A stretch of DNA of 64,000 bases from Vermamoeba vermiformis (GCA_045837725.1 JBEWZL010000098.1:186001-250000), one strand, 5' to 3'. Shown: positions 18,336 to 49,724, numbered from the stretch's first letter. Translations and numbers: made by a program. Notes: a model not told the origin generated them from the sequence alone.

Positions 18336-18464
18336 ATGACTACTACTACTATTAATGATAATAATACTCTTGTGAATAGCAAAAATAAACTTGTACAAAC
18401 AAATTCAAACGACCAAGTTCTTGAGAATACAAACACAACTCGTAACTTTTATTAGCATATAACA

Positions 18465-19329: not shown

Positions 19330-19422
19330 AGCGTAATTGTATTTAACAGAGTATCACACTGTTGTTCGTGGACAAGTCACACACTTTTTATTTTCAAGAG
19401 CTTGCTAAGCACAGAACATTGC

Positions 19423-21059: not shown

Positions 21060-21311
21060 TGTGACTTGTGACTCTTCGCTTTGGTAAAACGACAAAATGT
21101 TTTGCGGTCGAGACCAAAAAAAGAGACCGAATTTTATCAATTTTATTACTCACCCACAAGTACGCTCTGCAGGTTTGTGCAAGATAAACAGTAATCTTTT
21201 TTATTGTTTTAGATAACCGAGAGGTACTTCTTCCCAACAAACCGTTGAATGTCTACAAAAATTTAAAACACATGAAGGGTTGAAATTGTTATTAACATTA
21301 TTGTGGCGTGT

Positions 21312-22616: not shown

Positions 22617-22824
22617 TGATACTGCTTTGTTGTTTGTTGGCTTGCAGGAAAAAAACAAATTAACAACCACGAGCACAAACATCTTCGTACGAGCAACTAA
22701 GATTTACCCACAAACAAACGGGCTGTATTATTCAATAATTTATTGGTAGTACTAATGACACAAAATAGACAATCTTTGCCCACAAACAACAGGAGGGCAG
22801 ACCTCCTTATTAATAAATAATCGC

Positions 22825-26655: not shown

Positions 26656-26977
26656 TTTGAAGGATTAGAATGAGGCGTGTTCGTGTTTAAAAAAAGATAT
26701 GGAAAAAAGATTCTACAAAAACCCAAACCAAAAATCTCTCTTACGCTCACACACGGCAGCTGGAAATTGAACCGGTTAATAATAATGTCACCTGCAAGGT
26801 ACTCTTGATTGTTAAATTACAATTGTACACTGCTTTATTACTTTCTTTTCAATTTGCTACAGATCGCATTTCGAATGAGATTTGTTAAGTCTCGTTGTTG
26901 GTCATAAATATTGGTGAAGGAATCGGTCTATTAGGCGGATGAAGTCGTGGGGCTAGTTAGATGGTAATCTTGGCTCA

Positions 26978-28393: not shown

Positions 28394-28730
28394 TGTGCGA
28401 GCTGCAGAAAAATAATAGTGTTATTTTTTGCATAAATTCTTACTAATGTACCATAAAAATAAGGTTGTTGGTTCAATTCTGTAATATCTTCGGATCTAAA
28501 ATTATTTTTTAAAAGATTCAAAAGAGCCTAAATTTAACAAATAGTTGTTCTGACAAATTATAGCAACGTTGTGCATTATTATAAATATTAGTATTGTATA
28601 TTGTCGCTCATTTAGTCGAAGAAAACGATCAGAAACAGAATTGATCCTTATGTTAAGTAGCGTAATTGGCTTACCTGAACAACAGAGAAAAGAAAGTAAT
28701 GCAGTGTTGCAACGTATTCACTTACAGGTG

Positions 28731-30341
28731 ATGAATACTGTGTTTTTGCCAAGCCAACAACAGATTTGGATCTTCCGACGGATTTCTTCGGAGAACGTTT
28801 TATTTTTCTGAAGTCAATAGTGCAAATTGTTAACTACTGTAGTGTACATTGAAGCTTCAACAACAGACCACAAGGGACCTACTTGTTATTGTCTGCTTTT
28901 GGTGCGTGGATTTAGCTTAGGAGTGGATGGATAGAGGCGTTCTTGATATCAATATAATATAATATAATGCTCACTAGTTTCGTTGGATTTAATGTCGATA
29001 GAATCAGATTTTGCTCCCCTTCGAGTCGTTTTGGCGGATCTGACACCTGGTTCGTCACCTCCTCTCAAAATATTGACGTAAGTACATAATATAATATATC
29101 AGCTTAATTAAGCGATATTACCAAGCAGTATAACAGTACTGTAAAGTTGGATCCTTTCTTAGAAGTAGTACGAAATTAATTCTGCTCGCAGCACGCCCTG
29201 GCAGTGTGGGACTGGGAGACGTGTTTGAATGCAGAGAGCTATCAGCGCGTCACTGGCAAGGCACGTTACTTCCGCATGAGTGACGACGAGGACATTCGCG
29301 ATCCAGTGCGCGTCGCAACGAGTGCACTGAGTGCCGGTGATCAGAAGAACATCGGTACCCCTACCCAACTGCGCGTGAGTAATCAGCACTAGTATAGCGA
29401 GCATGTCTCACAGCCGCGCAGACACTGTCAGAGCACGAGCGCTCATTGCTAGTCACATCCACCTCTGCTGGTCTCGTGTTCGTGCACAACATTACACGCA
29501 CTCAACAGGCCACAGTAAGATCACGATGCATAATACAATGCACGACTAGTCACTCACCCTCGTTGTCCAGGAGCTCAAATACACGCAACACACCGCCGCA
29601 CACGCGAGTGCAGTGAATGACATCGACGTGCAGCAAGACAAGCTCGTGGTCGCATCAGCAGGCGAGGACGGACTAGTGCATGTGATCAGTCTCGCGGACT
29701 TGAAGACACGCAGCACTTTCGGTGAGTACGCGCGCTGATGGCACTCACGAGACTCACGCTCTTGTTCTCCAGCCCCGCCAGAGCGACGGTCCATCACCGC
29801 GCTCAAACACTGCACTGCTGACACCTTGGCACTCGCCATGGGCTCCGTCACCGTGCTCTGGGACTCGCGCACTGATAAGCCTGTCATGCGCTGTGAGTCC
29901 TCGCACAGCTCTCAGCTGACGCACCACCACGTGACGTGTTTGACGGTGCACCCTGATCAGCCGCACCGCTTGGTGACAGGTGCCAGTGACGGACGTGTCA
30001 CACTTTATGACCTGCGTGTCAATGCCGCACTGCAGTCGCACACCACGCACTCCTCGCTCGGTACGTACACTAGTCTCATCTTGCAGTCGTACTCACCACG
30101 GCCTATTCTAGTGTGGGAGGTCAAGTTCTTGCCGCAACAGCCAGATGCGCTGCTCTCGTGCGGTGAAGACGGTCAATTGCTCTTGTGGCACGCCAATGCT
30201 CCTGCAGCACCAGTGCATCGACTGCTGACTAACATCATGGGCGTCAATTCGTTCGACATTCACCCCGAATTTCAGTACCTCGCTGCGTCGTTGGATCAGG
30301 AGGCTGTCGTGTTCAACACGCAACTCGCGGAGAAATTGTAA
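28731..30341 (+). CDS. NUP43: WD40 protein, Nup43-like; 5' exon structure and start uncertain
   Basis: VTCLTVHPDQPHRLVTGASDGRVTLYDLR, HSSLVWEVKFLPQQPDALLSCGEDGQLLLW, GVNSFDI...DQEAVVF match the Nup43 C-terminal blades as I recall them. Confidence 0.68.
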
Positions 30342-31109: not shown

Positions 31110-31428
31110 AGCAATCACGTGCCTCTATATATATCGAGGGTCTATTAACATGTGCTCGCACAACACGCGATAAGAGGTGTTTGAAAGAATAAACAATTGT
31201 ATATACTGGCCAATGCGTTAGTTCTCAGTACTTGTTGCCTGATCTAGTCTCCGATCGGTCACGTGTTCGAGTCACGTGTTCGTTGTTTATGACGCACGTG
31301 ATTTTCTCAAACATTTGACGCGCACGCAAATTCGAAATTGAACACGAAGCTTCACGACCACAACAGTCTATCTTATTCGCTCATTGAACCATCACAGACT
31401 ATTGCATGACTCACAGACTATTGCAGGG

Positions 31429-34400
31429 ATGACAGCGATGTTTGACGTTGAAAAATGGTAAAATGATATTTGAAAAATACGAAAAAAAATTACAAAAATA
31501 TTTAATATCACTTATTTAGCTCAATGCTGCTCAAATTAGCATTGAACAGAATTCGATTGCAGAAAAATAAGAAGCGTGAATTGAATGAAGTGCGTCGGCG
31601 TGAGATCGCAACACTCTTAGCTGACGGCAAGGAAGATCAAGCACGTGTGAAGGTACTAGCGAGTGAGACGAGTACAGCGACGATAATATTTAATGCACAT
31701 GCAGGTTATCGCATTAGTACATGAAGATCTGATGGTGGAAGCACTCGGCATTGTGGAAGTCTACTGCGAGACTATTGCAGTGCGCTTAGACATCATCGCT
31801 GCACAAATGTACGCCGATTGCAGCTATTAATAGCTCTAATCTTTGCGACAGTTCTTGTCCGCTTGACATGCACGAGTCTATCAGCGGCATTATTTATTCC
31901 GCGCCCTATTTTGAACACAGCCCTGAACTCGCCAAGGTCAGTACACTCCATGACCAAATATGGCAATAGCTGATGTGTTGCACAGATTGCGCGCATGTTG
32001 ATGCACAAATATGGCGCAGACTTTGCCAATGAAGCAGCGACTAACAAGCTCATCAACACACGCGTAGGTTCTAAAAATAGTTCATCACGTGACTCACTAA
32101 GCATTGCAGTTATTTCGCGCGCTGTCCAATCAGTTGCCCGAAGAAGGTCTGATCCACTTCTATCTCTCGGTCATCTCGCGCACTCACGAGATCGACTGGT
32201 CTGTGCCGGTAACTATTCATGAACGGTGACACTTTGACATCGCACTGACACGTGTCACTGCAGACAGTTGAGGGCATGGCTAAGATCGACGAAGCACTTG
32301 CCAAAAAAGGTCTGCGCGAAGAGAGCAGTGTGCCACTAGACAGCGCGGTGGATGAAGGCCCTGTGTTGCGCGGAATATTTCAGCAAGATGCCGTGGAGAG
32401 CACGTGGGGGTGGGTGACGACGGAAGAATTGGGTCCGCAGCGACCAGTGCTGGTGACACGCGACGAGTCCGTGCCCTGGCCGAGATCACGTGACACTGTG
32501 CGCGTGCAGTTGAGTGACCCTGGCAAGAGCGGAACAATTGCTGGTCAACTGCTGTTTGACGGGCCTGCTCCGAATACTGGCACACGTCACGTGTCTGGTG
32601 TGTTGCAGGTGGACAAAAAAGGCAATCACTGGGCAGTGTCACGTGATCCGATCAGCAGTCGCGCGCTGTACGTGTTCATCGCGCCCAAAGATCTGAATGG
32701 CGCGCAACCTCGCGATCACGTGCGCGTTGAACTTCACAACCGCGCTGACAGCAAACTGTCAGGCCGTGTCATTGCCGCTGAACAATTGCCTAATTTGGAA
32801 CAGTCGCAGCCTCGCTTCTACCAGGGTGATTTGCAGCGAGATAAGTCTGGCCGCTACTGGGTCACACAAGGCACGTGATTTGGTGATCTATTTTTAGCTT
32901 CAAGTCCTAAAAAAGGTTGTTTTTTAGCGACACCTGTCATTCCAGGGCCTGTGCGCGCAGAGCTGACATTGACACGACCGGTGTACATTGCGGACAAAGA
33001 TCTGCTCGCTGACAGCAGTCCCGGCACACGTGTGGTGATTGAACTGCACGCGCGCACTGACGACAAGCTCTCCGCGCGCATCGTGTCGGCCGTGGCGAGT
33101 GCCGCGCTGAGTGGCAGCGAGAGCGAGTTTGAGGCCGTGCTCACCATTGACTCGCACACGGGCATGGGCTATGCAGTGCACCCCAGCACACGTGCGGTGT
33201 ACGTCATGCCCACGAGGTAAGGCAGTGCTCGTTCAGTGAATCAGAGAACTCATGACACGCGTTTCAGTGAACACCTCAATTACGCGCAACATCTCGATCA
33301 CGTGCGCGTTGTGCCACTCAGTCCCCTCGATCAGAATGGCACCAACCAGGGCCAGTTCACGCTCGGTCAGGTGACACGTGTCATCAAGCCTCACTCGCAC
33401 ACCAAAGATGTGATTGGTCAGGTGACTGTGACGGCTGATGGCACTGCTCACGTGCCGTACTTGACCTCCATTCATCGCCTGCGCGTGGATGACACTGTCG
33501 ATCAGATCACTGTGGATATTCCTCCAGAGGCTGTTAAGAAGCACAATCTCCGCACCGGAGATTTAGTGATGGTGCGTGCTCAGCGATATTTCCCGTCAGG
33601 TGACACCCCACACCCACACGTGACTGGCGAGGTCATGAATGTGTTACAGCATGCTAGCGACCTCTCGTTGACAGGTGTCAAATCGAGTGTGACACCATCT
33701 CCGAGCGCGTCACTCATGTCCACCAATGACAGTCACGCAAGTGATCACGTGCTTTTCCAGGGCCTCGAATCAGAGCTCGACAACACCGTCTATCACGTGA
33801 CCGATGAGCTGCGATCACGTGGTGCCGAGGCCAGTCACGTGATCACCGACGAGCCAGTGATGGTGCTCGACATTGGCGAGTACTCTGTGCGCGCAGGACT
33901 GCACACTCTGGTCAACGAAGGTCAAACCAGTCCGAGTCTCGAGCTGAGTGCGGTGATTGGTCGCACGAGTGTGCCACCAACCATGTTGACAGCTGTCAAT
34001 GACGAGTTCTATTTTGGGTACGAAGCACTCAGACGGCGCAGTGTCCTTTCAGTGAATTCGTTGATGGAGCACGGTCACGTGCTGGACTGGGATCACGTGG
34101 ATCAATTCGTTGGTCACGTGTACGAACAACTGCAATTAATCAGCGCGGAATATCCTGTGAGTATCTGCCGCTAAGTTAGGTTTATTATTCCGCTCACTTT
34201 CCTAATTAGGTCGTGTTGCCCCTGCCAGCCAATACTCCGCACGCCAATATCTCCGAGTACGCCTCGATCCTGTTTGAGAGTCACGTGGTCCCCTATCTCG
34301 CAATGCCCTCGCAAGTCACGTGCCTGCCCTGGTCCATGACACGTGACGCACCTGCCTTGCTTGTCGATCTCGGTGCTGGTCAGACGCAAGTGACAGCTGT

Positions 34401-35013
34401 CACCGCTGACAATCACGTGCTCCACCACGTGACAGCACGCACCACACTGGCCGGGCGATCACTGGCGACAGTGCTGTCACGTGACTTGAAACTCGATCAC
34501 GTGCCCTGGGTGATCACCACGCAGTTGCTGAATCATTGCGCCCTGGTGGAAGATGTCACTCAACTCGATCACGTGATCGATCGATCGGAGCCACTGTCAC
34601 TGTCCGATTTGGAAGTGGAGGCAGGCTTACCTTCCATATTTGGTGCTGAGCGGTATCGCTGTCCCGAACTACTGTTTGACCCTCGGCCCTTGGGTCTGGA
34701 GCTCGAGCAGGGTCTCAGTCACGTGCTTGCTCGTTCACTGAACCGCGTCACCGACCAGTCGCTGCGTCATCTGCTCGCGCGGAACATTGTGCTGAGCGGT
34801 GGCTTGTCGCAGCTGACAGGTCTCACCGCTCGACTGACACGTGATCTGCGCGCACTGATGTCCGATCACGTGATCAGCGTCCAATCAGCAGCGAGTGCCA
34901 GTCACGCGGTGTGGCTCGGTGCAGCGCGCAGTGTGCACGAACAGCACTACTACTCGCGCGATGATTTTTTCGAACAGGGCTCGCGTGTGTTCATCGACTC
35001 CTCGCAGTTGTAA
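31429..35013 (+). CDS. Multidomain fusion: IST1 (ESCRT-III-like) N-domain + ~5 cold-shock/OB repeats of RNase II/R type + divergent actin-related domain
   Basis: IST1: LKLALNRIRLQKNKK...RREIATLLADGKEDQARVK...EDLMVEALGIVEVYCE...KYGADFA. OB: VFIAPKDLNGAQPRDHVRVEL...SGRVI. Actin: VLDIGEYSVRAG, FGYEAL, EHGHVLDWD, LVDLGAGQT, ERYRCPELLFDP, NIVLSGG, AVWLGA. The junctions I checked between domains are phase-compatible. Confidence 0.8.
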
Positions 35014-35202
35014 TTATCACGTGGTTTGCATGAACGATCACGTGATGTTGCCTTATTTGTACATACAAAAAAAATGTAAATTCCGCATTGCCTAAAATTT
35101 CCTTGGGTGAAGTGTTACGCTTCCAGCTTCCAGTTGATGTTACAGGATTAGAGGAGTACACGATATGTATAATATATAATTGTATATAATAGTTATAAGA
35201 AC

Positions 35203-38200
35203 ATGGAGAAGAATTTTCCGAGCTACATCTACGATCATGTCTTCCGTCCAGTCATATTGACTGTTACAACCCCTGAGGCGGAGGCATTGATAAAAAAGCA
35301 CGATGGATTGACGATAGCCAAATACTTGAATATGCACTCGGCTATTAATGAGCGAGGTAAATTTAATAATAATAATAAGTTTTTTTTTAATTTTTTCACC
35401 AGCATTTTTATTTAATTTTAATTTGTTTTAATCGTCTTAGTATAGATGATTAGTTTATTCTTTGTTTCAATTTTTACATAAAATTAAAATTTCGAATTAC
35501 CGCAATTCAATTTGCAACCACATCCACTGCCCCGCACCACTCTAATATGCTTCCCTCGCCACCAGTGCGCATTCGACTGCCAGGCAGTGCGGACACGGAG
35601 CGACAAGGCTTTGAGATTGTATTCGCCACGCCCGAGACACTGTTGACACCGTTCACGAACAAACTCGCTGCTGCCCTGGTCGAGGTGCCACCGTGCCAGC
35701 CACGTGCCAGCATAGTCGTGCGACACAAGAGCGATGCTGTCACGTATCAGCGCGGTCAGTACTTTGACACTTGCCCGCGTACCTCGCTGTTTGACACTTG
35801 CCTAATTTAGAATACACGCGCACGATGCGCAGCTCGGAGGAGGTCCGATTGCCGTGGAGTTGGTGGTACCAAATATGGCGCGAACATCGCCTCGGCTGCA
35901 GTGTGGCGAATGAGTACGAGACAGCGCACCATCCCGTGGCAGTGCTGGTCTGCGTCACGCGACAGCAGCTGAGTGCCACCAGCAAGGTCTGGGACGTGCG
36001 GAGACCTCCGAGCTACTGGCCCAAGTACATGGACAGCAATCTGCCCGTGCACTACTGTCTCGTCTCGGACTCGGACGCGGAGTAGGTCCCGTGATTGGAG
36101 CTATTTTTAGAACTCACTCTCTATTTTTAGCACTGCCGTACAACTCGAAGAATGCAAAAAAGCCACAGGCTCGAGCAATTGTCACGTGATTACGGTTGGT
36201 TCACTGAACGAAGCTGACATTCACAGAACGCAAGAATTCACGCGCGAATTGATGTTGAAGAATTTAATTCCCGATATGGAGCGCAGCATCAAAACCACGC
36301 ACGATCAGATGCAGACGGAGCGCAAAGGATTTAGCCATAAATGGAAATTGTGGATTGGTGGTGGCAAGTACAAAGAGGACGGCAGCGACGAGGAGCGCTA
36401 TCCCCCCGCGAGTGTGGAGCAACAGCAGCGCAAGATGGGGGACTGGGCCATGATGTTGGGTGACTGGCCCTTTGCCTTCAAGCACCTCAAACAGCTCGCC
36501 GATGTGTTTCGCGCGGACGGAGCCGTGCTGCATCGTGTGCACGCCCTGCACTCCGCGGCCATTGCGCTGCTGTGCACCAGTGTGCCACCAGTGACACTCT
36601 CCCAGGGCCAGCAGATCACCACCGTGCTGCTGTCCAGTCAAATTGCCACACAGCTCGAGTCGCTGCTCGATGCCGCGCACCGTGAACTGCTCAAACTGCT
36701 CGCGACACCACTCACCCCGACACGTGCACCGCTCTTGCAGGCACTCGCACAGCGCATCTTGTTGCTGCACGCGGATGTGTTGCTCGCTTCGGAAGTGCCC
36801 GATGCCGTGCAAGCTGGAGCACTGTTTGACCGATTGTTGACCGGCAATCAGAACGGCGCTGATCCCCTCGCACTGCTCAGCACTGCACCGCTCGCTGTGC
36901 CGTCCATTGAGGAGCACAACAGCTGGCTGGAGCGGGCGTTGTATCTCGAGCAGATGGCGCTCTGCCACCTCTCCACGCGACCCAGTGCCATGATTCGCAA
37001 GTTCGCCTTTCGCATGTTTCAATCAGGGCTCGTGTACCATCACCTCGCCCTCGCGCTCTCGCAGGGTGCCAGCACAGCCCTGGTAGATCGCTACTACCAA
37101 CACGCCCTGCGCTGTTTCAGCAGCAGCTATCACGTGCTGGAGTGTCACGAGGCAGCAGAATGGAGTGGCAGCAGTGCGTGGTCCTCGATGCTCGATCACG
37201 CGCACTCACTGCTGGCACGACTCTCGCACCGCTTGGGCCTCACACAGCACGCCTTCACACTCTTTGCGCGCCTCGTGCAGCACAATCAGCAGAGTGCCAC
37301 CGCCCAGGCCTCACTGCTGCGAGAATTCTTCCACTTGATGCGTGCCAGTCACGTGCCGGACAGTGATGTCACGCTGCACTTCCCGCTGCTGGTGGACATC
37401 ACGCTCAACGACGAGCAGTTGAGTTCGCAGTGGCTCAGCGCGCACAGCTTGCAACGATTGCGCGCACTCAAGCGCGAGAAGAAGCGGCAAAGTGCCACCA
37501 AACACTCTGGCTCCAGGCCACAGTATCTCCGCTTTGTGGTGCACGACGATCCGATTGAGCGGAACAACTCCCCTCAAGCGGAACAACTGTTGGCCGAGTG
37601 GCACTGGATGAAAATGGAAGAGGCGCTGATCGTGTCGGAGATGAGCGGAGATAAAGCGCAGCTGCTGGCACTCAAAAAACAACAAGTGCAATATCAACAG
37701 CAGAACTCGCGACTCGCTGTCACTGTGCCACCACTCGCTGTCGTTCATGAATCATTCTGGGTCGAGCTCAAACTGTTCAATCCGCTTCAAGTACCTTTGC
37801 AGTTGTTCGACTTGCATCTATTAATAGACTTCCAATCCACGGAGGTCGACGAGCCAAATATAGACAACACGCCCTTCAATCTCTTATTGCAGCCTCAACA
37901 GCGTCACATGGTACGATCGATCAACTGTGCTATAAATAGCCCCACTGACTGCTAATTATAGGTGCGATTTGCCCTGCGCGCCAAGCACGAAGGTCGCGTG
38001 ACGGTGCACGGCATTCGCTTCAGACTGGTGCCGGGCGTGTGGTGCGTGGTCAAACTGAAATCTCCGGACAGCAAATTCACTGAACAGAATTCACTGAACA
38101 TGCTCAAGCGACGCAAGTTCAACAAATCCTCCAGCAATCTGCGCCGCTCGGAGGATGACTCCGAAGAAGACAGTTCGCTGAGCGGCAACAGCAGTCCGCA

Positions 38201-40136
38201 GCTCAAAAACAGTCTCACGTCGCCCGTCAAGCGCAAACAGAGTCACAAGCGCAGCAGCAGTCACCAGGACAGTGGCAATGTGACACCTACCTCCAGTCCG
38301 CGCACTGCTTCCTTATTAGGCGATGAGAACAAAGTGTCCGACGATCACGTGATCACAGTGGTCGGAGTCATGCCCCGATTGCAGGTCTGTCTCGTGGGAT
38401 TCAACGACGACGTGACAGCTAAAAATAGCTCCGTCCCCCATGCACTGCGCCACGGAGCTAAAAATAGCACCGTGTTCATGTCGCAGTACCAGCCCGATGC
38501 AGAATCGAATGCCGAGCTGAACAACGTCAATCCAAATCAGGTAGTGCCACGTGACCACAAAATCACCGTGCGCGGCGGAGTGATCAAGCGCCTATTACTA
38601 AATATAGTCAACACGGGTCACGCGCCGATCAAAAAGATCTGCTTCACGCACTCGCACCCCAATTTGTTCTTAATTCCGCGCGGCGAAGATCTCGAACTGC
38701 TCAGTGACAGCGGTGACAAGTTGACAGCTGTCATTGAGACCAAAAAAGTCAATGTCAGTCACGTGACTCGTCCTCCCAGCACGCCGCAGTGGCTCTCAGC
38801 CGCGCAGCAGCACATCTACTATCAACTGCTTGCCACGTGCTCGCACACGCCACTCCACGTGACACGCATCACCCTCGCGGAGATATTGCAGCCGGGACAG
38901 TCCTTGTCTTTGCCGATCTATTATCGATCTCCCACGCATCTCCCACCCGTGCCACAGCTCGACAACGTCTTGCAACACAAATTTCTATTTTTGGCTGAGT
39001 CCCCGAAGAGCACGACTACCAAATTTAGACTGCAGAAGTGTCAAGTAGATGTCAAAGTGCTGCCCTCGCTGCGCGTCACTTCGCACACACGCCCGAGTCA
39101 CGATCACCTGCACAACCATATTTGGTCAATCGAGTTCGAGAACGGGTCCAAAGATAGCACCGTGGTGCTGCACGAGTTGGTGGCACTCAGCGCGCAGTGG
39201 ACGTTGACGCCGCTCAGCAACACCAACAGCGCACGCCTGCCCCCGCAGAGCTCGCTCAATCTCTTCTTCCACGTGCAGCCACGTGACAGCAGTGCCACAC
39301 GCCACAGCGGACCCTGGGGAGAGGACTCCACGGTGATCAGCTTCGATCGATCGGATCTCGACGAGCGGGAGATACAACGCGCGTTCATGAACAAAGAGAA
39401 GACGGAACAACACGAGCTGGAGCGCGATCAGCAAGCGAGTGCCAGTGGTTTCAAGCCCGCCCCGCTCATCATCCTCGACAACGCGCAGCACGAACTCGAA
39501 CTCGCAGCGCAGCGTCGCATGGTGAGTGTGCAGAGCGCGTACAACGTGCAGCTGTTGATCACGTGGACGAGTCAGAACAGCGCCAAGTCACGTGCCGAGC
39601 GCGGTCAGCACCACCTGATTGACGTCAAATTCACACCGGGCCTCAGTCCTGCCGCACTGCCCACAGGTACGCAGTTGTGTCGCGTCTCATTCGCGACGAG
39701 TGCACTGACGCTATTAATAGATCTCTCCAAGCAGTGTCCGCTCCGCTTTGTGATCGATTCCCCCGCCGTGCTGGCACACGACTTTGCGCGCCAATCACTT
39801 GCCTTGGTGCCGATTGTGTTCCACGTGACCAACACCAGTCCCCTCGCTCCACTCGACTACGAATTTGAGACTTTGAGACCGCAAGAGACGGTGGAGACCA
39901 GCAACGAATTGAATTCTTCGAGCGACTATTTGTGGAGTGGCACTACGCACCGTGCCCTCACTACACTGGCACCCTTGCAGTCCGCGCAGTTCAGTGTGAC
40001 CGCTTGCTTTGCACGCCCTGGTCGCTATTTGATCAACCGCTTCAAGTTCAATGTGTTCGCGACAGATCCTTTCTCGCAAAAGAAGAAAAAACTGACGCTC
40101 TACTCGTCCTCGCAGCACTTGTTGGTGATTAAATAA
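35203..40136 (+). CDS. TRAPPC8: TRAPP III subunit TRAPPC8/Trs85
   Basis: LNEADIHRTQEFTRELMLKNLIPDMERSI, YPPASVEQQQRKMGDWAMMLGDW, IRKFAFRMFQSG, VELKLFNPLQVPLQLFDL, YLWSGTT. Confidence 0.88.
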
Positions 40137-40245
40137 TACGACTAGTAGTACTTGTACATAACCCATTGCTACATTAAAACGGTGTTTGCATTTACATCAA
40201 CAATAATTACAAGTTTTGTACAGACTGAGCATGACACGCGCGTGG

Positions 40246-41865
40246 CTACTTGGTGCTATTATTAGCAGCAGTGGCAGGTGGCTCCAGTGTGCCGTGCAGT
40301 GCTTGCGACCACGCGGCGAGGTCTTCACTGTCCGCACTCAGCAGATCGAGCACATTCAACGCACTCTGCGCTACGATGCGCTGCTGATCACGTGACAGTG
40401 CGGCAGCGAGCAGTTGTGGGGGGTCAGTGCAGGGGTCCATGAGGCGATTGATCGGATACAACATGCCCGCTGCGAGGTACTGCCACACGGTGAGCAGGGC
40501 CCAGGCCACGGACGCGACATCGTGCAGCGGTTGCGTGCGACAGTAGACCGCGTGATACACCACCACGTGCAGCGTCCAGTCCGTCACTGTCGCGCGCAGA
40601 TCGGGGCTGTGATCGCGCACGTGGAGCAGTGTGCGCAACAAGACGCGCGGCGAGATGACAGCGAAGGTGAAGAAGTTGTTATTGAGCAGATAGGTCTCGA
40701 ACCAGATGTGCTGGCGTATTGCCATCAAGTGCGCGCGACACACCGCGAGCTCGCAGCCCTGGTCGACGGGCACGGACTCGGAGTAGCTCCAGGCCTTGAG
40801 GAAGGTCACTGGCACCTCCACGTGTACCGTCGTGCCGTTGACTGCTGTCTCGCTGCTGACCCCTGTCACTGCACCGAGCAGTGCCGCATCTTGTTTGACA
40901 TTCGCAGTGACGTGTATGCACAGCTGTGATTGGTCCACGGTCACGTGCACATCTACCAGGGCGCCAGAGTTGACAGCAGTGGTCAAGTGTGTTTGCACGG
41001 ATTCAGCGATGCAGTCGACACGTGACTTAATGGGTGGCAGTGATTCGCGGAGAATTACGGCGAGGACAGCACGCAGTTGATCACGTGACATGGTGCCCTG
41101 AGCATAACGACCAATCAGCTTCAGCTCCGTGATGTCACGTGGTGCCAGTACGTCACGTGCTCCTTGTTGCGAGAGATTGGTCAGCGCGGTCATCACGTGC
41201 TGCACGACGGAGGCCAGGGCCAGTGCTTGCGCTGTCAGGTGGATTGGTCGAATTAGTAGCGTGTTGCATAGCTTGGTGACGCAACACTTACCTGGCTCGG
41301 GAACTAATTTCCTTTTATGGAAATCAAGGATTGCCGCATCCAAGTCAGCGAGCGAATGCTTGACTGGACGCGCAGCGCTGTTCTGTTCAGTGCTCGGTGC
41401 TGCAGTATCGCTAGTCTGCAGGCCCATGGCATTGCGCACGTGTCTGCGGCCCTTGACGTGCAACTCCCACGTATGCAGACTGGAGCAGTGGCAGTCGCAG
41501 ATCTTGCAGTAGTAGTCGCCTGGAACATCAGCTGTCGTAGCAGTGTTAGTAGGCTCAATGTAGGTGTTGGGCTTGTGTTTCTTCGCTGCTGGACCCTCGT
41601 TGAAGTCTGGATCGTCTCGCTCGCGACGACGTTCTGGATGTGGTGGCGGTGCATTCGTCGCTGCAGCGCCATTAGCCAGCAACGAGGCCAATATATTCTG
41701 AACACTGGTGCTCTCAGCTGCGGGTTGCTGCAGTGGCAGCGCCTTGTTCTTGAGTGCCTCTTGGTGCTTCTTGCCGCGCATGTGCTGCTGATAATTGGGC
41801 GCGCCAGTGCAGGAGATCTGACACACACTGCAGTAGTAGCTGAGCTTGTTGGTGTGGTCTGACAT
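40246..41865 (-). CDS. ZFR-like protein: two dsRNA-binding-type C2H2 fingers + DZF domain (one 60-nt intron, 41232-41291)
   Basis: YCSVCQISCTGAPNYQQHMRGKKH and YCKICDCHCSSLHTWELHVKGRRH; DZF-like IGRYAQGTM, CRAHLMAIRQHIWFE, DWTLHVVV, YLAAGML...LMDPC...LSRDQQRIVAQSALNVLDLL. Confidence 0.8.
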   Translation of the reverse strand: MSDHTNKLSYYCSVCQISCTGAPNYQQHMRGKKHQEALKNKALPLQQPAAESTSVQNILASLLANGAAATNAPPPHPERRRERDDPDFNEGPAAKKHKPNTYIEPTNTATTADVPGDYYCKICDCHCSSLHTWELHVKGRRHVRNAMGLQTSDTAAPSTEQNSAARPVKHSLADLDAAILDFHKRKLVPEPGKCCVTKLCNTLLIRPIHLTAQALALASVVQHVMTALTNLSQQGARDVLAPRDITELKLIGRYAQGTMSRDQLRAVLAVILRESLPPIKSRVDCIAESVQTHLTTAVNSGALVDVHVTVDQSQLCIHVTANVKQDAALLGAVTGVSSETAVNGTTVHVEVPVTFLKAWSYSESVPVDQGCELAVCRAHLMAIRQHIWFETYLLNNNFFTFAVISPRVLLRTLLHVRDHSPDLRATVTDWTLHVVVYHAVYCRTQPLHDVASVAWALLTVWQYLAAGMLYPINRLMDPCTDPPQLLAAALSRDQQRIVAQSALNVLDLLSADSEDLAAWSQALHGTLEPPATAANNSTK

Positions 41866-42205
41866 TGCGAGGGGAGGGACGTGTACTGCGGAACTGAGGC
41901 GATGCTAGTATGAGAGTAGAATTTATGTCTGCACCTATCGCAGTCTCCAATCAGCTAGCTACGTGTTGATGACTCGCGTTGTGTTCGATCTGGTCAGCGA
42001 GGGAATGGAAATAGACACAACACTGCGCACTTGTTGCACCTGTCCGCAGAACACGAACACAGCGCAGTCAGCTGACTCATTTATGCTGCTATTAGTCGCT
42101 GGTATGCTCAATGAACGAATGGCAAGCTGACGTCATTTTAACAATTAATTTTATTTCCAGATCCAACACGAAATTGAATTCTATCGTTGAAATTGATGAA
42201 AAATA

Positions 42206-44144
42206 ATGGGCCTATCAAAAATATATTGGCCACAACATATTACGCAGCCCAAGAATGGTCCACCCCCTTCAGGCTATGTGATCGGGTGGGTGCTGTCGAG
42301 TCCAGTGCCCGTGACCAGCACGCATCATCGCCGCTCCGACAGTGCTGCGAGCGATGACCTCGATCACTTGCGGCAGCTCTCTGACTCTGACTCCACCCAG
42401 CAGCGCGTCACAGCCGTGTTCGTGGTGGATGTGCTCGACGGTCCTGCAGCCCAAGTGCGCGCAGTGATTGAGCGCTGCAACGAACAGCTGCACCAACAAC
42501 GACCGCACGATCAGCCCCTCGCTGTGCTGGGCTACATCGGTGCACCAGATCACGCCGACAGAGCGCTGTTCGAGAGTGCACTCTGGCTCACGCTGCACAC
42601 ACGCGCGCGCTGGCCGGCACTGCTGTCACTGGAGCACGTGACTGGCACTGAGCACGTGACGCGCGGCAGAGAGGAGAGCGCGCACTCGAATGTGATCTTC
42701 ATCTTCTACCAACAGCGCGTGATCGATGTGAGTCACGAGCACGCGGCACACAATTCACTGCACTCCAAACTGCTCGCGACCATCACACGCGCCTGTCACT
42801 GCGCACTCACCCTGCACCGCTCGGCTGAGACCTCTCGCGCGCGTGTGGGGCCCGTGCACGACTCGATGGTGGGCACACTGGGCCTGGTCTGGCTGCGTGT
42901 CATCTGGCTGTTGACACGTGTCATGTCACCACTCGCAGTCAAGCTCATCTGGTTCATGAATCGCAAACTGTCCTTGCCCTTATATGGCAGTGTGCGCAGT
43001 CTGCGTGAGAGCAGTCTGATCGGTGAACAGCTCGATCACCGCTTCAAACTGGTGCGCGAGTGGCACGCACTGGCTGGGCTATTAATAGAACAGGCGCGCA
43101 GTGACGAGCCGTTGAGTCAGTTGCCCGATCGTCAACAGCTGCGCGACAAGTACCTCACCATGTGCAATCAGCTGCTCATCGTCACGATCGATGTGCTGTC
43201 GGGTATTTCCGCGATGCTATTTATAGCGTACTGGCTGATGACGTCGGAACAAAGCATTATTCCGCGCCTGACGCAGCTGTACAACTCGCACATCATCAGC
43301 ATGACGGCGTGGATCGAGTGGCTCATGTTGGGCTGGCCAGCAGGTGTCAAGCTCAACTACAAGCTGGATCTATTTTTAGGTCAGATCTTGCTGTTCTACA
43401 TCCAGCACTGGGCACTGTTCATCACCACCCTCGCCAACAGTGCGGCCATAGTGTGGACCATCATCGCGCTCACCTCGCTCATGTGCACGCAGGGCCTCAC
43501 CATGCTCATCGCACTCTTCTTCGACATTGTCTCCGTGGCCTGCACGCACATCTTTTGGTTGTTTGCAGCTTTGCAGCGCACGTACAATCTGCAAATCAGA
43601 ATCCTGTCCTCGCTGTGGATGTTGTTCCAGGGCAAGAAACACAACGTGCTCAAACAGCGCGTGGACAGCTGCGACTACGAGATCGATCAGCTGCTGCTCG
43701 GCACACTCTTGTTCGCGATGCTCTTCTTCTTGCTGCCCACCCTCATCTCGTACTACACCTTCTTGGCCTCGCTGTTCAGTCTCGCCACGGCTGCACATCT
43801 GCTGGCCCAGATCATGTTCAGCACTGTGTATCACTTCCCGCTGTATCAGATCTGGCTCTACTTCTTCGATCGCACCGCCTACTTGGAGATCAGCTTCAAA
43901 ATTCTGCAGTGGCCGCAACAGCTGCAGACTGAAAGCTCATCGGTGTATTTTGAGCTCAAGGTAAGATCATATCTCTATTATTGCTCGTCTAATTGCACCA
44001 CAGAATTCTAAAGTGCCATTCTACCTGCTATTCACCAAGCTATTCAAGAACTTGTCACACTTGTTTGTACCATACTCTGTCACAAAGGTCTTCAAATCTA
44101 TCGTATTTGGCACCAAATTACAACGTGTACATAATGACATGTAA
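42206..44144 (+). CDS. PIGQ: GPI-GlcNAc transferase subunit PIG-Q/Gpi1
   Basis: WLMLGWPAGVKLNYKLDLFLG, SLWMLFQGKKHNVLKQRVDSCDYEIDQLLLGTLLF...FLLPT; short last exon ends with TAA at 44144. Confidence 0.93.
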
Positions 44145-44159
44145 ATAAACAATCCTAAA

Positions 44160-45720
44160 GTCTGGAGGTCCTGCCCAACCGCCTTCAAGCGTAATAAAAG
44201 GCTAATAGCACCAAATTGTAGTGGATACTATATTTTAGGTGAGTTAAATGGTTTCCTTGCTTAGGAACTGAGTTTGGCAAAGTTTAGTTGTATCTCTCAT
44301 CCGCATAGTCTTAGATAGTGGCTTAACAAAGCATGGAAATCATTTGCAAAATGGACATGTCAGAGTTCAATAGAAAGAGTCAACATTGCAAGTGTAATCT
44401 TACATGACAATTTTGGGCGTGTAAAACTGCTCTTTACAACAGGATGGCAGATCCTGTCATTTCAGGGTCGCTGTTGAGGGTTGCACTAAAACCCCAGTCA
44501 GACTGGACTAGCCATGGCTCAACATCAGAGGGTTGAAGATACATCAGCAGACGGATCCAGGGTCGCTGCATCTGCTGATGTTAGTAATTGACCAACTTAT
44601 ACCAAACACTGCCATTAGCACCAGCGGACCCAAGAAGGACTACTGTTGGCATCAGGTGGCTTTGGGCAAATCGTTGGAGGCTGAAAATGTCATTGTTCTG
44701 CAAAGAACTTAACCCCAGAACTTAGTTCTAAATTACTGCTATACCATTTAAACTTCGAGACTCAGCATGATTTGCTTTGTTATGACTCTCATTCAAAAAT
44801 ATTCCGTTTCTGGTACAGTTCTATGCAGACTACAATCTACAGGAGGATGCCGATGTCCTGTCCAGCAAAAAGTGGACATCCGCCAAGGACCGCACCGCCG
44901 ACCATACATTATATAGTATGAAGATTTTAACAAGATTTCCATGTGCCATGTATATGATTAAGCAATCCCTTCATTATAACAAGGTTTGCCACCATACTGG
45001 ACAAAGTTACAACATAAAAAAGTTAGATGAATCAAAAAAATTTTCATAGCTAGGTGACAATGTATTGTAGCCAAAGTTCAGGGTTGCATAAAATACTTGT
45101 GTTGTACGAAACATGTGCTGGTGGGTGGGTTCATACTTAATGCTGAAAATTTACAATTTGCTGCCACTACAATATCTTTGATGATTACCCATATTTTCTT
45201 GTTAGATAGTGATAGGTCTAAAAGTTTCCAAAGTTTCAATGGTATTGCAGCCAATAGAAAAAAGTTATAGTACTTAAGTTCTTTGCAGAAATTTGCCATT
45301 TTCAGCCTCTGGCGTTTAGCCCAAGCCTCCTGACGCCAATAGTAGTGTTTCTTGGGTCCACTGATGTTGGTCTTACTAACTTCAGCAGGCGCAGCGACCC
45401 CGGACGGACGCAATGTCCACGGACGGACGAAAAATTTTTGGCGGACAGGACGTCCACCTATATAATACCAGTTTTTAATAGGATTTCTATATGCCATGTA
45501 TGTGGTTAAGCATATCCCTTCCGTATAAAAAGGTTTGCCCATGCTGGACAAAGTTACAATATAAAAAATTATGAATAACGCAAAAATTTTTGGACAGTTA
45601 GATGACAATGAATTGTAGCCAAAGTTCAGTGGTGTATAAAATACGTATAGTTGTATTTTAATAGAAGACTTCTTGGTCACTAGAGCAAATTTGAATATGG
45701 ATGTGAGGGGGATTACTGCC
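44160..45720. mobile_element. Decayed repeat/transposon-relic island containing diverged inverted (44560-44755 vs 45231-45400) and direct (44925-45106 vs 45473-45655) copies
   Basis: Shared words TTCTGCAAAGAACTTAA (inverted pair), CTGGACAAAGTTACAA and ATTGTAGCCAAAGTTCAG (direct pair), and GGACGGACG clusters. CpG-poor, no recognisable protein, longest gene-free gap in the window. Confidence 0.6.
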
Positions 45721-45837
45721 CTTGTACAAGATGGAACCAATATGCCGTAGAGGTGAAATTTTTATCGGTTTTATATTACAGGGTTACATTACAAATGTAC
45801 AAAAAGCATTTACAAGCATCATAATGATGCAATGTGC

Positions 45838-47384
45838 TCATGAAATATCCATCAGCACAGAATTGGTCTCTGATTCCTTTTCAGAGGCGCCATCAGCCTC
45901 ATCCATGAAGTCAGGCAGCTCATCCACACTTTTAATGATTGGTACGCGGTCCCACAACAACCGTCCGCCACGTCCAATGCGCGCACGACCCCTAAACGAG
46001 GGCATGTTGCTGCTGCTCAAGTTGATGAGTTTGATCCAACCAGGGTCGTCACTGGCCAGGTCAAACAGTGACAGCTGTGACAGTGGCACCACAGCGCGTG
46101 ACTCGACACGTGACTCGGTGGCTGGACTGGCTGGCTCGCTATCGGAACTGACATCGAATTCTTCTGCTGACAGCTGACTGACAGGTTCATCACGTGGAGG
46201 TGTCAACGTGTCACTCGCTGCTCGCCGTCGTCGCGTCTTGTGCTTGGTGCTCGTGCCGTTCATGAACAGCGTGTCAGTGTCCGTGTCCGCAGTCAGCCAC
46301 GTGGTCTCCAACTCGCCGTTGAACAGCGCGGTGTCCTCGAGGATGTTGTCGCGCAGTTCGTTGCCCTGGTGCACCAATATTTGCAGCATGTGCTGTGCCA
46401 GGGCTCGTTTGCACTCCTCGCGGCGCGTGATGAGTTGCAAGAGCTGTCGCGCGCGCGTGAACTGTTCGCGCAGTGCCCGCATGAGCGCGAGGGAGTGCTC
46501 GGGTCTGTAGCTGCGCACGGGCTGCTTCTTCTCCTCGGTCTTGTAGATGAACGCTGCGTACGGCGAACTCTCGCTCACTGGCTCGCGTAACTTGCGCAGC
46601 AACGGCTCACTGCTCGCTGCTCGCCGCGCCTTCCAGTGCTGCACCACGGCGGGCACGTGATCGAGCAGTTCAGGCCGTTCATGAAACAGTCTCATCGCTT
46701 GCTGCGCATTCAATGTCACGTGCTTAGCTTTGCCAGCGTGTTTTTCGAGCGTGTCGATCATCAGCTCGAGATCATCGGCGTCGAGCACGTGGTGCGCGTG
46801 TCCATTCGCTGTCACGTGATGATGATTGTTCCGCTCGTCACGTGCTCGATCACGTGATGTGTAGTCCTCCAGCCACGACTCGTCCTCGCTGTCGAGATCG
46901 TACTCGACGGGCACGCGTTCACTGTCAGGCAGGGTGTATATAATGTATCCGTTGGGTCTGTTGAACAAATACGCAGCACTCTCGCGCTCGTATTCATCGC
47001 GCACTATGACGCGGGGCGTGGGAATGGCCACATCTGGTTGTTGGTGACCGACGCGTAGCACTTCTTGAAGATGTTTTTCCTGCACTAAGGTCAGCCAATC
47101 GTGTCCGTATATCAATATTCTGTAGAATCACTGCGTAGTGAATTGAACTTGAGCGTACCAAAGGCGAATCCGCGCAAAAAAATTAAATAACAAATATCCA
47201 AAAATTTACAGCTCAAGAGATATTTCACAATGAAATCACGTACCGCCTCCTCATCCTTCGACATGCCAGTAGGTATATCGGGTATGTCCTGCGCTTCAAT
47301 CTCGACCTCGGGGGGCGGATTGTGAAAGACAGGCATGGGCCTGTCAGGGTCTATTCGACGACTGCGCAGTGAAAATGCACTCAT
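45838..47384 (-). CDS. EPL1: Enhancer of polycomb-like protein (NuA4 subunit Epl1/EPC)
   Basis: LRSRRIDPDRPMPVF, PTGMSKDEEAEKHLQ, IPTP, EYDLDSEDESWL, LELMIDTLEK, SPYAAF, FRGRARIGRGGRLLWDR. Confidence 0.93.
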
Positions 47385-47776
47385 AGAGTAGACTCGCTCT
47401 CGTACTCGCTCTTATTAGTGTCGTCGATGCTGAAGCATAATCGCTCAGGTAAATCCAACAATGCGAACAAAAAAAGGGTGATCTGCAAGGGTCAAAATTA
47501 GCAACAGATCTGTCAAGAACAAAGAAATTCGAGTGCAAACATACTACTGCTACTGGGTGAGGGGTCAATGACTGTGCGCGAGTGCTGGGCGACAAGTCAA
47601 CAAAAATAATTTCGCCGTGCTGTGAAATTGTTCGTTCAGGTCCGCAACAGTCATTCCTCGCACTACTGGCGCACTACCACCACAAGCGAGCACTATTATA
47701 CAGGTACGTGCAGTAATATCTGAATTGTGCCTGTTGTTGGTTCACACCTAATTATTCTGATCGCGATCAGGCGCAG

Positions 47777-49724
47777 ATGGAGCACCAACCAGGCCCGCAG
47801 AGCCACGAGACCGCGCCATCGCTACAAGTGCCACATGATGAAGGAGACCGCGATGTCGCGATCAAAGCAGAATATGTGGCTGCAGATCCATCGCAGATTG
47901 ATTTGTCGTCCTTCGCTGTACGTTCTATAGTCCCGCAATATTCATATGTAACATATTAGTGCAGTAATTACTGGTCATTGGTCGAATATATTAATTAATG
48001 CCACCAGTGAGTACTCGCAATACTAACACTCGTCAGACACTGCCGTTAATCTCGGAGCAATCTCCGGTGTCAGAACTTTGCAGTGCAATCGCGCAGGGCT
48101 CGGAGTGTCGCTTCGGTGACACGTGTCAATTCAATCACGACACCGCCTCGTACCTCGCTGTCAAACCTCCGCCAGTGCGCGACACGTGTCCGTTTGCCGC
48201 ACGTGATCAGAGCTGTCCCTACGGAGTCACGTGTCTGTGCGGCCCTACCCATGACATTACCCAAAAAGGCAATGATGTTGCTGACACCTTAGAGCGAAAT
48301 TTCCTCTCCAAAGCAGTGCAACAACAGCTGCGCAAGAAGAGCTATGATTTCTCGCGCGCCGATGCCCAAATTAAGAAAACAACGCGTGAGGTGCGCGCGG
48401 AGCGGAACAAAATTGACTGGCACCGCAAGCTAATTTTAGCGCCACTGACCACTGTTGGCAATCTGCCATTCAGACGCCTGTGCGTGACTCTCGGTGCTGA
48501 CGTGACCCTGGGCGAGATGTGCGGAATAATACCATTCATGAATGAACTCTGTTAGTAATCATTGCAATTATTTCAGGGCCCTGGCGCAGAACATCGTGAA
48601 AGGCGAGCGGCAAGAGTGGTCGCTGATTCGTCGGCACCAGTCCGAGGCTATTTTTGGCGTGCAGCTGGCAGGAGCACACGTGGACACACTGACACGTGCG
48701 GTGCAGCTCTTGACGGACCCGGAGAATGAAATTTCAGTGGATTTTATTGACTTGAATGTGGGCTGTCCGATCGATCTGATTACCAAAAAAGGCATGGGCT
48801 GCGCACTGGTGACACGTCCCGCGCACTTGACAGCACTGCTGCGCGGCATGGTCGACACCGCGCAACACGTGCCAGTGACGGTGAAGCTGCGTACTGGCGC
48901 GCAGGACTACAGCAACAAACTGCACGGCCCTGATCACGTGCCTGTGGAGAAGCGCGGAACAATACACAGAGATATTCTTCCGCAGCTGGCAGAGATCGGA
49001 GTGTCAGCTGTCACCATCCACGGCCGCTCTCAACGACAGCGCTATCTCCGCGCGGCAGATTGGCAGTACATTGCGCACTGCGGGGAGCTGTTGAGCGCCC
49101 ACAACATTCCCTTAATAGGCAAGTGATCTCTGCACTCGAGATCTGCAGTCTAACAGTGTCGCACAGGCAACGGTGACATCTACAACTGGGAAGAGGCCCA
49201 GCAGCACTTTGAACGCGATCACGTGACTGCCCTGATGATCGCGCGCAGTGCTCTGATCAAGCCGTGGCTATTTAAGGAAATCAAAGAGCAGCGTCACATC
49301 GACTACACGGCCACGCAACGGTACGTCCCACCACACCCAGTACTCGCACCACACAGTACTGTACTCACCTCAGACCCACAGGTGGGAGTTGATCTCCGAG
49401 TTCATCGCGCACGGTCTCGAGCACTGGGGCAGCGACAGACGCGGTGTGGAGACTACGCGGCGCTTCTTGCTCGAGTGGCTCTCCTTCACGCACCGCTACA
49501 TACCCATTGGACTCGTGCAACACGTGCAGCCAATCAGCATTCACCACCGCGCTGCGAGTCGACTGCAAGCACGCGATCAGTTTGAGACCATATTGAGCAG
49601 TCCACTCGTCGCTGATTGGCAGAGAATTGCTGCCTGGTTCCTCGGACCTGCTCCGAGCTCAGAGGCGAAGAGTACCTTCAAGCCCACACACACTGCTGGC
49701 TGGCAAGATCAACAGAACGGTTAG
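47777..49724 (+). CDS. DUS3L: tRNA-dihydrouridine(47) synthase with CCCH fingers
   Basis: [89 protein letters not shown]. Confidence 0.96.

Follow-up and report, generated by a model that had tools for sequence, protein, structure and literature searches.

An iterated CACGTG palindrome in coding exons of a Vermamoeba vermiformis genome region

Genes of the region and distribution of CACGTG

We analyzed a stretch of 64,000 nucleotides of the Vermamoeba vermiformis genome (GCA_045837725.1 JBEWZL010000098.1:186001-250000), called here the window, with positions counted from its first letter. An earlier note, made from the sequence alone, had drawn attention to the palindrome CACGTG as a word iterated through the coding exons of this region and shaping the encoded proteins. 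The open frames of the window encode ordinary eukaryotic housekeeping proteins, and the palindrome is concentrated in a main hot zone at 31250-49550, which holds 86 copies in 18.3 kb. Contigs from three RNA-type runs from other studies match positions 31-50 kb at 95-100% identity, and joining the exons at the RNA junctions yields single open frames of 898, 1514, 532, 633, and 469 codons for five consecutive genes, denoted A to E. The Gpi1 frame (gene D) is 100% identical to a public protein whose 90% cluster includes a EukProt transcript labelled V. vermiformis. Coding counts given below refer to the 19 coding segments examined, with a total length of ∼31 kb.

Gene A (31986-35013, plus strand) encodes a divergent member of the actin-related proteins, whose N terminus carries a long extension, as indicated by introns seen in the RNA contigs, the joined open frame, a Pfam Actin match, and matches to actin and Arp1 structures in PDB. 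It is the densest gene, with 29 CACGTG sites over a coding length of 2694 bases, or 10.8 per kb. Gene B (35170-40136, plus strand; TRAPPC8/Trs85-like, 1514 codons) has 15 sites and realizes 15 of the 18 places compatible with its amino acid sequence. Gene C (40246-41904, minus strand) encodes a zf-met/DZF zinc-finger protein and carries 11 sites in 1596 bases, forming a cluster at 40389-41442. Gene D (42200-44100, plus strand), encoding the GPI-GlcNAc transferase subunit Gpi1, has three sites (42635, 42653, and 42915), all within its 5′ 720 bp, while the conserved 3′ domain has none. Gene E (45838-47400, minus strand; Enhancer-of-polycomb-like, EPL1) has nine sites in 1407 coding bases, and gene F (47995-49585, plus strand; DUS3L-like tRNA dihydrouridine synthase) has eight in its first 1071 coding bases.

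The densest cluster lies at 34282-35044, with 13 sites in 763 bp, the last two of which (35018 and 35039) fall in the 3′ untranslated end of gene A. One member of this cluster is contained in a 16-bp palindrome, TCGATCACGTGATCGA, at 34565-34580, and a scan of the window for palindromes also yielded GATCACGTGATC at 34864-34875 and again at 38343. The list of sites thus reproduces both the cluster counts and the longer palindromes reported in the earlier note, as well as the scarcity of the word in PRP6, EF1-gamma (EF1G), and myosin I, which have two, zero, and one copies, respectively.

A second hot zone, at 8406-13284, covers the end of a SNARE gene, a class-V aminotransferase gene, and the 3′ part of Sec24 and holds 10 sites; a weaker one, at 59078-63314, lies over a gene encoding a filamin-RhoGEF-PH protein and holds 11. 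By contrast, the cold zone at 13301-29899, comprising the 5′ part of Sec24, PRP6 (15279-18332), EF1G, myosin I, and a G3BP-like gene, has only three sites in 16.6 kb. The gene for an LRR-PP2C phosphatase (53958-57638, minus strand), a 3681-base open frame with a GC content of 0.58, is also cold and has a single site. Other genes of the window encode a mitochondrial carrier, a UcrQ-like protein, a WD40 protein, and an ankyrin-RapGAP protein.

CACGTG exceeds composition and codon usage

The window contains 119 copies of CACGTG, compared with 25.54 ± 4.86 in dinucleotide-preserving shuffles (maximum 37; none of 100 shuffles reached 119). This makes it the commonest single-strand hexamer, the runner-up having 74 copies; among palindromic hexamers, it leads by a wide margin over the second, GCGCGC, with 54. 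Palindromes in general are modestly enriched (89 against 55.7 expected for arms of 5 bp, and 25 against 14.2 for arms of 6 bp), with a few specific words dominating. When dinucleotides were shuffled in blocks of 1 kb, the expectation for the main hot zone was 12.0 ± 3.6 against the 86 copies observed (maximum 25 in 200 shuffles). Outside this zone, 33 copies were found against 18.0 ± 3.6, a 1.8-fold enrichment.

The window as a whole favors the dinucleotides CA, TG, and GC and the codons CAC and GTG. To account for coding sequence, three null models were used. The coding segments contain 92 CACGTG sites, whereas shuffling the order of codons gave 17.2 ± 3.9, shuffling synonymous codons with the protein fixed gave 37.1 ± 4.1, and shuffling that preserved the protein, codon usage, and dinucleotides gave 48.9 ± 4.5 (maximum 60 in 40 shuffles). 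As the observed number exceeds all three expectations, codon usage is rejected as the cause of the excess. CACGTG is also the strongest outlier of all hexamers in the coding sequence, with z-scores of 19.0 and 13.5 in the codon-order and synonymous models, respectively. The sites fall in all three reading frames (48, 34, and 10 in frames 0, 1, and 2), and under the most restrictive model, which predicts 33.1, 11.0, and 4.8, each frame shows an excess. A smaller count is to be expected in frame 2, which requires Thr-Cys or Thr-Trp and in which the favored following A would create a stop codon. The excess had been expected to vanish under a codon- and dinucleotide-preserving shuffle, or to sit in one frame, if it had no DNA-level cause; neither occurred, and the claim that the word recurs in different frames stands.

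The excess extends to non-coding or unassigned DNA, with 23 copies against 7.8 expected. Short introns were derived from the RNA contigs; 15 of 20 are listed, 13 of them on the plus strand (one with GC..AG boundaries) and two on the minus strand. These introns, with a total length of 1052 bp and a GC content of 39%, contain two CACGTG sites, at 32249 and 32872, which is above the expectation from composition and below the exon density. The earlier note had also placed copies in introns and intergenic DNA. The intronic location holds for these two sites, which lie in or on introns, but the upstream cluster at 31260-31300 and the sites at 35018 and 35039 turned out to belong to transcribed non-coding ends. 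No sites are found in the untranscribed AT-rich spacer at 44.3-45.6 kb.

Two candidate sources of the excess were examined and rejected. A dispersed repeat or miniature transposable element does not fit, as the sites are not embedded in a longer unit, with the exception of one 42-base repeat in gene A. Decay of CpG (CGCGCG to CACGTG) or TET protection does not fit either, as hot and cold zones alike have an observed-to-expected CpG ratio close to 1 and hot genes are not poorer in GCGCGC.

Codon choice and protein composition in hot and cold genes

For comparison, genes A, B, C, E, and F were taken as the hot set (3770 codons, 11.3 kb), and PRP6, EF1G, myosin I, G3BP, LRR-PP2C, and two Sec24 exons as the cold set (4288 codons, 12.9 kb). 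The GC content at third codon positions (GC3) is equal in the two sets (0.66 and 0.67), and their codon usage is similar. Still, the hot set has 72 sites and the cold set four, the latter being the codon-shuffle expectation. Amino-acid-compatible places are occupied in 72 of 90 cases in hot genes and in four of 29 in cold genes. The ratio of sites to sequences one synonymous step away from a site is 72:8 in the hot set and 4:11 in the cold set (odds ratio 24.8, Fisher p = 9e-7).

In hot genes, the places able to spell the word are nearly saturated with it. Of 43 His-Val dipeptides, 39 are written CAC GTG (codon usage predicts 55%), [STPA]-Arg-[VADEG] is written nCA CGT G in 25 of 38 (4% expected), and x-Thr-[Cys/Trp] is written nnC ACG TG in eight of nine (13% expected). 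Moreover, the proteins themselves are altered. The 43 His-Val dipeptides of the hot genes compare with three in the cold genes, so that the described richness in His-Val is confirmed; histidine makes up 4.6% of residues in hot genes and 2.1% in cold genes, and valine 8.0% and 5.7%, respectively. Within the actin fold encoded by gene A, one stretch reads EHGHVLDWDHVDQFVGHV where an aligned solved actin-like chain has ESGRVVSWENMEKLWGHV. CACGTG thus reshapes proteins in hot genes, as seen from the shift in histidine and valine and from the gains and losses of sites, which mostly come with amino acid changes (see below).

Since cold genes leave synonymous positions unused, the pressure is specific to genes or domains. 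This does not agree with the proposal that the word becomes fixed wherever protein constraint is weak. In particular, PRP6, with a codon-optimality index of 0.50, as low as in the hottest genes, realizes only two of 11 compatible places and retains five synonymous neighbors.

Along the window, hot stretches (8.4-13.3, 29.9-42.9, 46.1-52.4, and 59.0-63.3 kb) alternate with cold ones (1-8.4, 13.3-29.9, 42.9-46.1, and 52.4-59.0 kb). They span several genes on both strands and can divide a single gene, as in Sec24 and Gpi1. Among GC-rich tiles, 36 in hot zones contain 92 sites and 24 in cold zones contain four, a contrast that is descriptive, since the distribution of CACGTG itself served to delimit the zones. 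Independently of zones, the counts in 65 GC-rich tiles are over-dispersed, with a variance-to-mean ratio of 2.6 and 28 empty tiles against 13.7 expected. Pairs of sites 10-29 bp apart are in excess (23 in two 10-bp bins, compared with about 4-7 per bin farther out), while no helical, nucleosomal, or other periodicity of the spacing was found in the window.

Symmetric flanks and additional dyad words

The preferred form of the sites in the window is RT-CACGTG-AY, with T at position −1 in 55 of 119 sites, A at +1 in 42, a purine at −2 in 99, and a pyrimidine at +2 in 96; C is preferred alongside A at +1. When coding sites are read in the sense orientation, the reverse-complemented left dinucleotides (AC 21, AT 18, CT 10, and TC 10) mirror the right ones (AC 20, AT 15, TC 12, and CC 12), and the same symmetry is seen in frames 0 and 1 separately. 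A protein- or RNA-level cause would not produce such symmetry, and therefore CACGTG acts on double-stranded DNA. Together with the excess that survives codon- and dinucleotide-preserving shuffles, this upholds the suggestion that a DNA-level, frame-independent process is at work. A reading of the sites as Z-DNA, which requires alternating purines and pyrimidines, was rejected, as the favored flanking T and A interrupt the alternation.

CACGTG is not the only word of this kind. CTAWWWWTAG occurs 23 times in the window against 0.39 ± 0.57 expected (none of 100 shuffles reached 23), at 8892, 10306, 11839, 12269, and 12291, 16 times in 31824-43370, and at 48430 and 51349, often as GCTAWWWWTAGC; it is absent between 13.3 and 31.8 kb and past 51.4 kb. 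Ten copies are exonic, compared with 0.05 in codon shuffles and 0.16 in synonymous shuffles, and these force rare codons such as CTA, TTA, and ATA. Two copies, GCTAAAAATAGC (38419-38467), lie in an exon of gene B that is contiguous in RNA contigs. Several others form the branch-point-plus-acceptor ends of short introns.

TGACA-NN-TGTCA is present in 12 copies against 0.33 expected (8403, 12121, 32246, 33372, 33669, 33987, 34391, 38722, 42912, 48117, 61686, and 62781). Six of these are the 12-mer TGACACGTGTCA (8403, 12121, 32246, 33372, 42912-42923, and 48117), four are TGACAGCTGTCA, and two have other central pairs. Eight copies are in coding sequence, where codon shuffles give 0.02 and synonymous shuffles 0.10.

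Counts of CACGTG and CTAWWWWTAG in 2-kb bins are correlated (Spearman 0.61, p = 2e-4), and the correlation is stronger when CTAWWWWTAG is combined with the non-CG TGACA-NN-TGTCA copies (0.76, p = 5.5e-7). As the other dyad words share the same domains, it is the domain that is special, not CACGTG alone.

In addition, several coding words, TGTCAC/GTGACA, CTGTCA/TGACAG, CACTGC/GCAGTG, GCACTG/CAGTGC, and CGATCA, are 4-5-fold over the codon-shuffle expectation in hot and cold genes alike. The excess of these further strand-symmetric words suggests that the genome holds a wider favored vocabulary.

CACGTG in related sequences

A metagenome contig of 6509 bases (L001) is colinear with 42.1-49.7 kb of the window at 73-83% identity. 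It contains 16 CACGTG sites, five CTAWWWWTAG, and one TGACACGTGTCA, the latter corresponding to the window copy at 42912, which is identical over 18 bases. The contig realizes 16 of 25 compatible places, and in its Gpi1 gene all five sites lie within the 5′ kilobase, leaving the 3′ domain free of them, the same split as in the window. A second metagenome relative (L002, 1.4 kb) has no CACGTG, and scans of genome contigs and viral contigs gave no match to further relatives.

In the aligned blocks, eight of 22 window sites are identical in L001, while eight L001 sites are missing from the window; the window-only site at 46813 and the L001-only site at 3604 are probably one site split by an alignment gap. 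The non-shared sites, compared between window and L001 in an unpolarized manner, differ in amino acid in 16 of 21 cases and by synonymous changes only in five. Individual sites therefore turn over largely via amino acid replacement. The site density of L001, the common split within Gpi1, and the differences in individual sites together mean that the density and its pattern have been maintained in both lineages while single sites turned over.

Whole-site identity is 16 of 38, with shared sites counted from both sides, compared with 24% for flanking hexamers (p = 0.012). At the protein level, of the eight His-Val dipeptides encoded by one exon of gene A, six are invariant across four Arp orthologues (the relatives being 99, 81, and 73% identical), compared with 51% of adjacent column pairs. 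In Gpi1 proteins from three lineages, a small and unrooted set, His-Val is both present and absent at three places. Among the differences between the window and the RNA contigs (40 of 119 listed), one falls in a CACGTG site, at 31118.

Possible causes of the iteration

The explanation we favor, to which we give about an even chance, is that CACGTG and the two other dyad words are recognition words of two-fold-symmetric DNA-binding proteins, each copy being favored in particular chromosomal domains. In the case of CACGTG, a dimeric protein of the bHLH-leucine-zipper type would read RT-CACGTG-AY on double-stranded DNA. Each copy could be favored through selection for occupancy or because binding biases mismatch repair or gene conversion, and the word would then build up through exons, introns, and untranslated ends of genes in such domains. 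This pressure would fix nearly all codon choices capable of forming the word and replace amino acids to create His-Val, Ser/Ala/Thr/Pro-Arg-Asp/Val or similar tripeptides, and Thr-Cys/Trp, while neighboring domains of equal GC3 would remain untouched. That each copy is favored individually follows from the near-saturation of compatible places, as a benefit from bulk numbers would leave the last places empty.

A bolder version, which we regard as tentative and on balance unlikely, is that the binding sites of a few dimeric proteins are selfish, drive-favored words spreading through exons in permissive domains, a eukaryotic counterpart of bacterial iterated words. Here a binding-directed bias of mismatch repair or conversion in a polyploid nucleus would override codons and rewrite weakly constrained residues. 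If so, the protein sequence of hot genes would partly be a by-product of a DNA-level drive.

Several observations weigh against recognition words read by dimeric proteins. We infer a dimeric reader of CACGTG from symmetry only. The three words presumably correspond to the canonical sites of bHLH-zipper, MEF2-type MADS, and TALE-homeodomain dimers. The divergent promoters at 41905-42199 and 47400-47994 hold no CACGTG, although a classical transcription-factor site would be expected there, and with up to 13 sites in 763 bp the density goes far beyond that of known regulatory clusters. Individual sites are retained to a moderate degree at most: the eight of 22 sites conserved in L001 compare with 31% of all coding hexamers (p = 0.37), and the per-base identity to L001 is 0.768 in sites and 0.745 in flanks. 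Furthermore, the density of sites drops with the codon-optimality index, which was built on codons unrelated to CACGTG (Spearman −0.65, p = 0.009, n = 15 genes), and therefore part of the contrast between hot and cold genes could reflect counter-selection in highly expressed genes. Counter-selection is probably not the sole factor, as PRP6 combines a low index with few sites. Finally, the data comprise one 64-kb window and one 6.5-kb relative, with hot and cold zones defined post hoc.

An alternative that we consider improbable, in line with the view of the earlier note, is a uniform HIP1-like molecular drive, in which a genome-wide process of repair, conversion, or protection turns near-cognates into CACGTG, and protein constraint and codon selection in highly expressed genes alone set the differences in density. 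Frame independence, survival of the excess under codon-preserving nulls, and the enrichment in the rest of the window would all follow from it, as would the location of sites at fast-evolving residues (the 16 of 21 amino acid differences), the confinement of Gpi1 sites, in window and L001 alike, to the 5′ part with its lower conservation, and the negative correlation with codon optimality. Yet a uniform drive should have consumed the synonymous opportunities that cold genes leave unused, including those of weakly biased PRP6, and should not leave cold coding sequence overall at the shuffle expectation. Nor does it predict the co-localization of two unrelated dyad words.

We see a rather poor case for local self-propagation, in which existing copies would seed new ones nearby by slippage, by tandem duplication of short units, or by templated synthesis of short patches, and site-rich regions would grow richer with no protein reader. 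The excess of closely spaced pairs agrees with it, tandem units are visible at 31260/31273, 42635/42653, 13263/13279, and 46839/46851, the copy at 42635 corresponds to an 18-bp gap in L001, and short motif-centered repeats share flanks. However, beyond ±2 the flanks of most sites are unrelated, duplication cannot explain the saturation of codons at isolated His-Val or Ser-Arg-Asp places, and the co-localized CTAWWWWTAG is left unexplained.

Methylation-directed repair had been among the processes suggested in the earlier note. Such repair is established for Dcm/Vsr of Escherichia coli and has been put forward for HIP1. In its very-short-patch form, a methyltransferase would mark CACGTG and T:G mismatches would be restored to C, so that CATGTG and CACATG should be depleted. 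In the window as a whole, they are, with 11 copies against 31.9 and nine against 32.1 by dinucleotide expectation, respectively. This depletion is gone in coding sequence under codon-aware nulls (four against 4.9 and five against 7.0), and in non-coding DNA it equals the general deficit of CATG (102 against 164.8), so that neither word is depleted beyond the background of CATG and codon usage. Such repair would also favor the central C alone, yet the final G is fixed too, as in the His-Val codons, and CpG is not depleted (observed/expected 1.03 in hot and 0.97 in cold zones). We thus consider this mechanism very unlikely.

About as unlikely is a signal at the RNA level, with CACGUG in mRNA bound by an RNA-binding protein or a small RNA. 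Since the word is palindromic, it would be visible in sense RNA for genes on either strand, and in 31-50 kb nearly all sites are transcribed and spliced in, the untranscribed spacers at 44.3-45.6 and ∼47.5-48.1 kb being empty. These spacers are AT-rich, and therefore few sites are expected there anyway. An RNA reader would not require the reverse-complement symmetry of the sense flanks, and two sites lie in or on the listed introns, short and GC-poor as these are.

An artefact of composition or repeats (codon usage, dipeptide preference, protein repeats, or a dispersed element) is practically negligible as an explanation: for all the favored CA, TG, and GC dinucleotides and CAC and GTG codons and the CACGTG-bearing internal 42-base repeat of gene A, the excess persists in three frames with protein, codons, and dinucleotides fixed, cold genes of the same codon usage are without the word, the sites do not belong to any repeat family of more than ∼30 bases (motif-centered matches span 16-30 bases at 70-89% identity), and the same sites are present in the RNA contigs from the three other studies.

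Comparison with known iterated and regulatory words

The closest known kinds of sequence are the cyanobacterial highly iterated palindrome HIP1 and bacterial uptake sequences, the differences lying in the host, the patchiness, and the presence of several co-localized dyad words. HIP1 (GCGATCGC) is likewise a short palindrome far above codon-preserving nulls, found in all frames and in non-coding DNA and moderately conserved. Its abundance, spread over frames, and conservation are covered in excerpts of PMC5861425, PMC4390886, and PMC13756078. The Vermamoeba word differs in that it is eukaryotic, occurs in spliced genes, and has a core of 6 bp rather than 8; it is patchy between neighboring genes, while HIP1 is genome-wide and quasi-periodic; and it comes together with two further dyad words and shows no repair signature. 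The likeness to HIP1 that had been proposed therefore applies to abundance and frame independence but not to the even genome-wide spread. No cognate methyltransferase is known for the Vermamoeba word. One preprint reports giant-virus-like Dam genes in V. vermiformis; Dam targets GATC and not CACGTG.

The resemblance to uptake sequences (USS and DUS) concerns short words reaching high copy number in genes through a transmission bias at the DNA level and settling where the peptide is tolerated. The uptake sequences of Pasteurellaceae and Neisseriaceae are non-palindromic, serve natural transformation, and are spread over whole genomes, whereas CACGTG is palindromic, eukaryotic, and patchy.

As a regulatory word, CACGTG is the E-box or G-box bound by bHLH-leucine-zipper dimers such as USF, TFE/MITF (the CLEAR element, GTCACGTGAC), and yeast Cbf1 (RTCACRTG). 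The core, the favored T at −1 and A at +1, and the dyad symmetry are the same. Unlike in E-box or G-box regulation, 92 of the 119 Vermamoeba sites are in the 19 coding segments, the two divergent promoter regions are empty, and the density reaches 17 per kb. Unlike in Cbf1/CDEI sites, the degenerate CACATG is not enriched, and the sites are inside expressed genes with no centromere context seen. No bHLH gene was found among the scanned open frames of the window. Exonic transcription-factor sites (duons) and homotypic clusters are also protein-recognition words that overlap codons and bias codon choice. Those are sparse and have weak codon effects, while here 72 of 90 compatible places are filled and amino acid composition is shifted.

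In the literature searched, no paper contains both CACGTG and Vermamoeba, and none of the matches listed for CACGTG with amoeba concerns an iterated coding palindrome. A search for palindromic hexamers over-represented genome-wide in coding regions gave no eukaryotic coding-exon case in the titles or opening abstract lines of the matches listed, supplementary k-mer tables aside. Excerpts of a paper on amoeba genomes (PMC11702301) do not mention palindromes, motifs, or methylation. Should the pattern extend across the whole genome, no earlier eukaryotic case was found of a short palindrome iterated in coding exons so densely as to fix codons and shift amino acids. Hot and cold genes lying side by side at equal GC3 offer a natural test of whether DNA-level forces beyond GC-biased conversion override protein selection. 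In practical terms, analyses of codon usage and of nonsynonymous-to-synonymous rate ratios (dN/dS) would be biased in hot genes of this host of Legionella and giant viruses, and stretches rich in His-Val or Ser-Arg-Asp should not be taken for functional protein motifs. The three co-localizing dyad words, in turn, are handles for identifying the proteins that read them.

Additional observations

The N-terminal extension of gene A (32264-33700) contains internal repeats, e.g., 32688-32729 and 33270-33311 (42 bases, 83%), and has a weak, sub-threshold Pfam match to a cold-shock-like domain. RNA contigs support GC..AG boundaries for the intron at 32871-32927, whose donor coincides in part with a CACGTG site (AG|GCACGTGAT).

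Between Gpi1 and EPL1, the untranscribed, AT-rich spacer has an inverted repeat within 44556-45644, with arms at ∼44556-44712 and 45274-45404 that are 81-88% complementary, and also direct repeats 548 bp apart (44922-45096 and 45470-45644). These repeats may represent a foldback or miniature transposable element. An open frame at 45078-45761 on the minus strand has no Pfam match.

Contigs of the three independent RNA runs pass into identical unrelated sequence at 31045, 33314, 34587, 39297, 42160, and 43049, and one of these six continuations itself carries CACGTG. The shared continuations could stem from paralogues or alternative forms, or else mark points where assemblies branch at a word held in common.

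At the beginning of the window (1-12000), ∼12 kb have a GC content of 41-43% and contain genes with small exons (UcrQ-like, mitochondrial carrier, SNARE, and aminotransferase), while the later genes are at 55-60% GC. This fits the wide range of GC3 in V. vermiformis given in the excerpts of PMC11702301.

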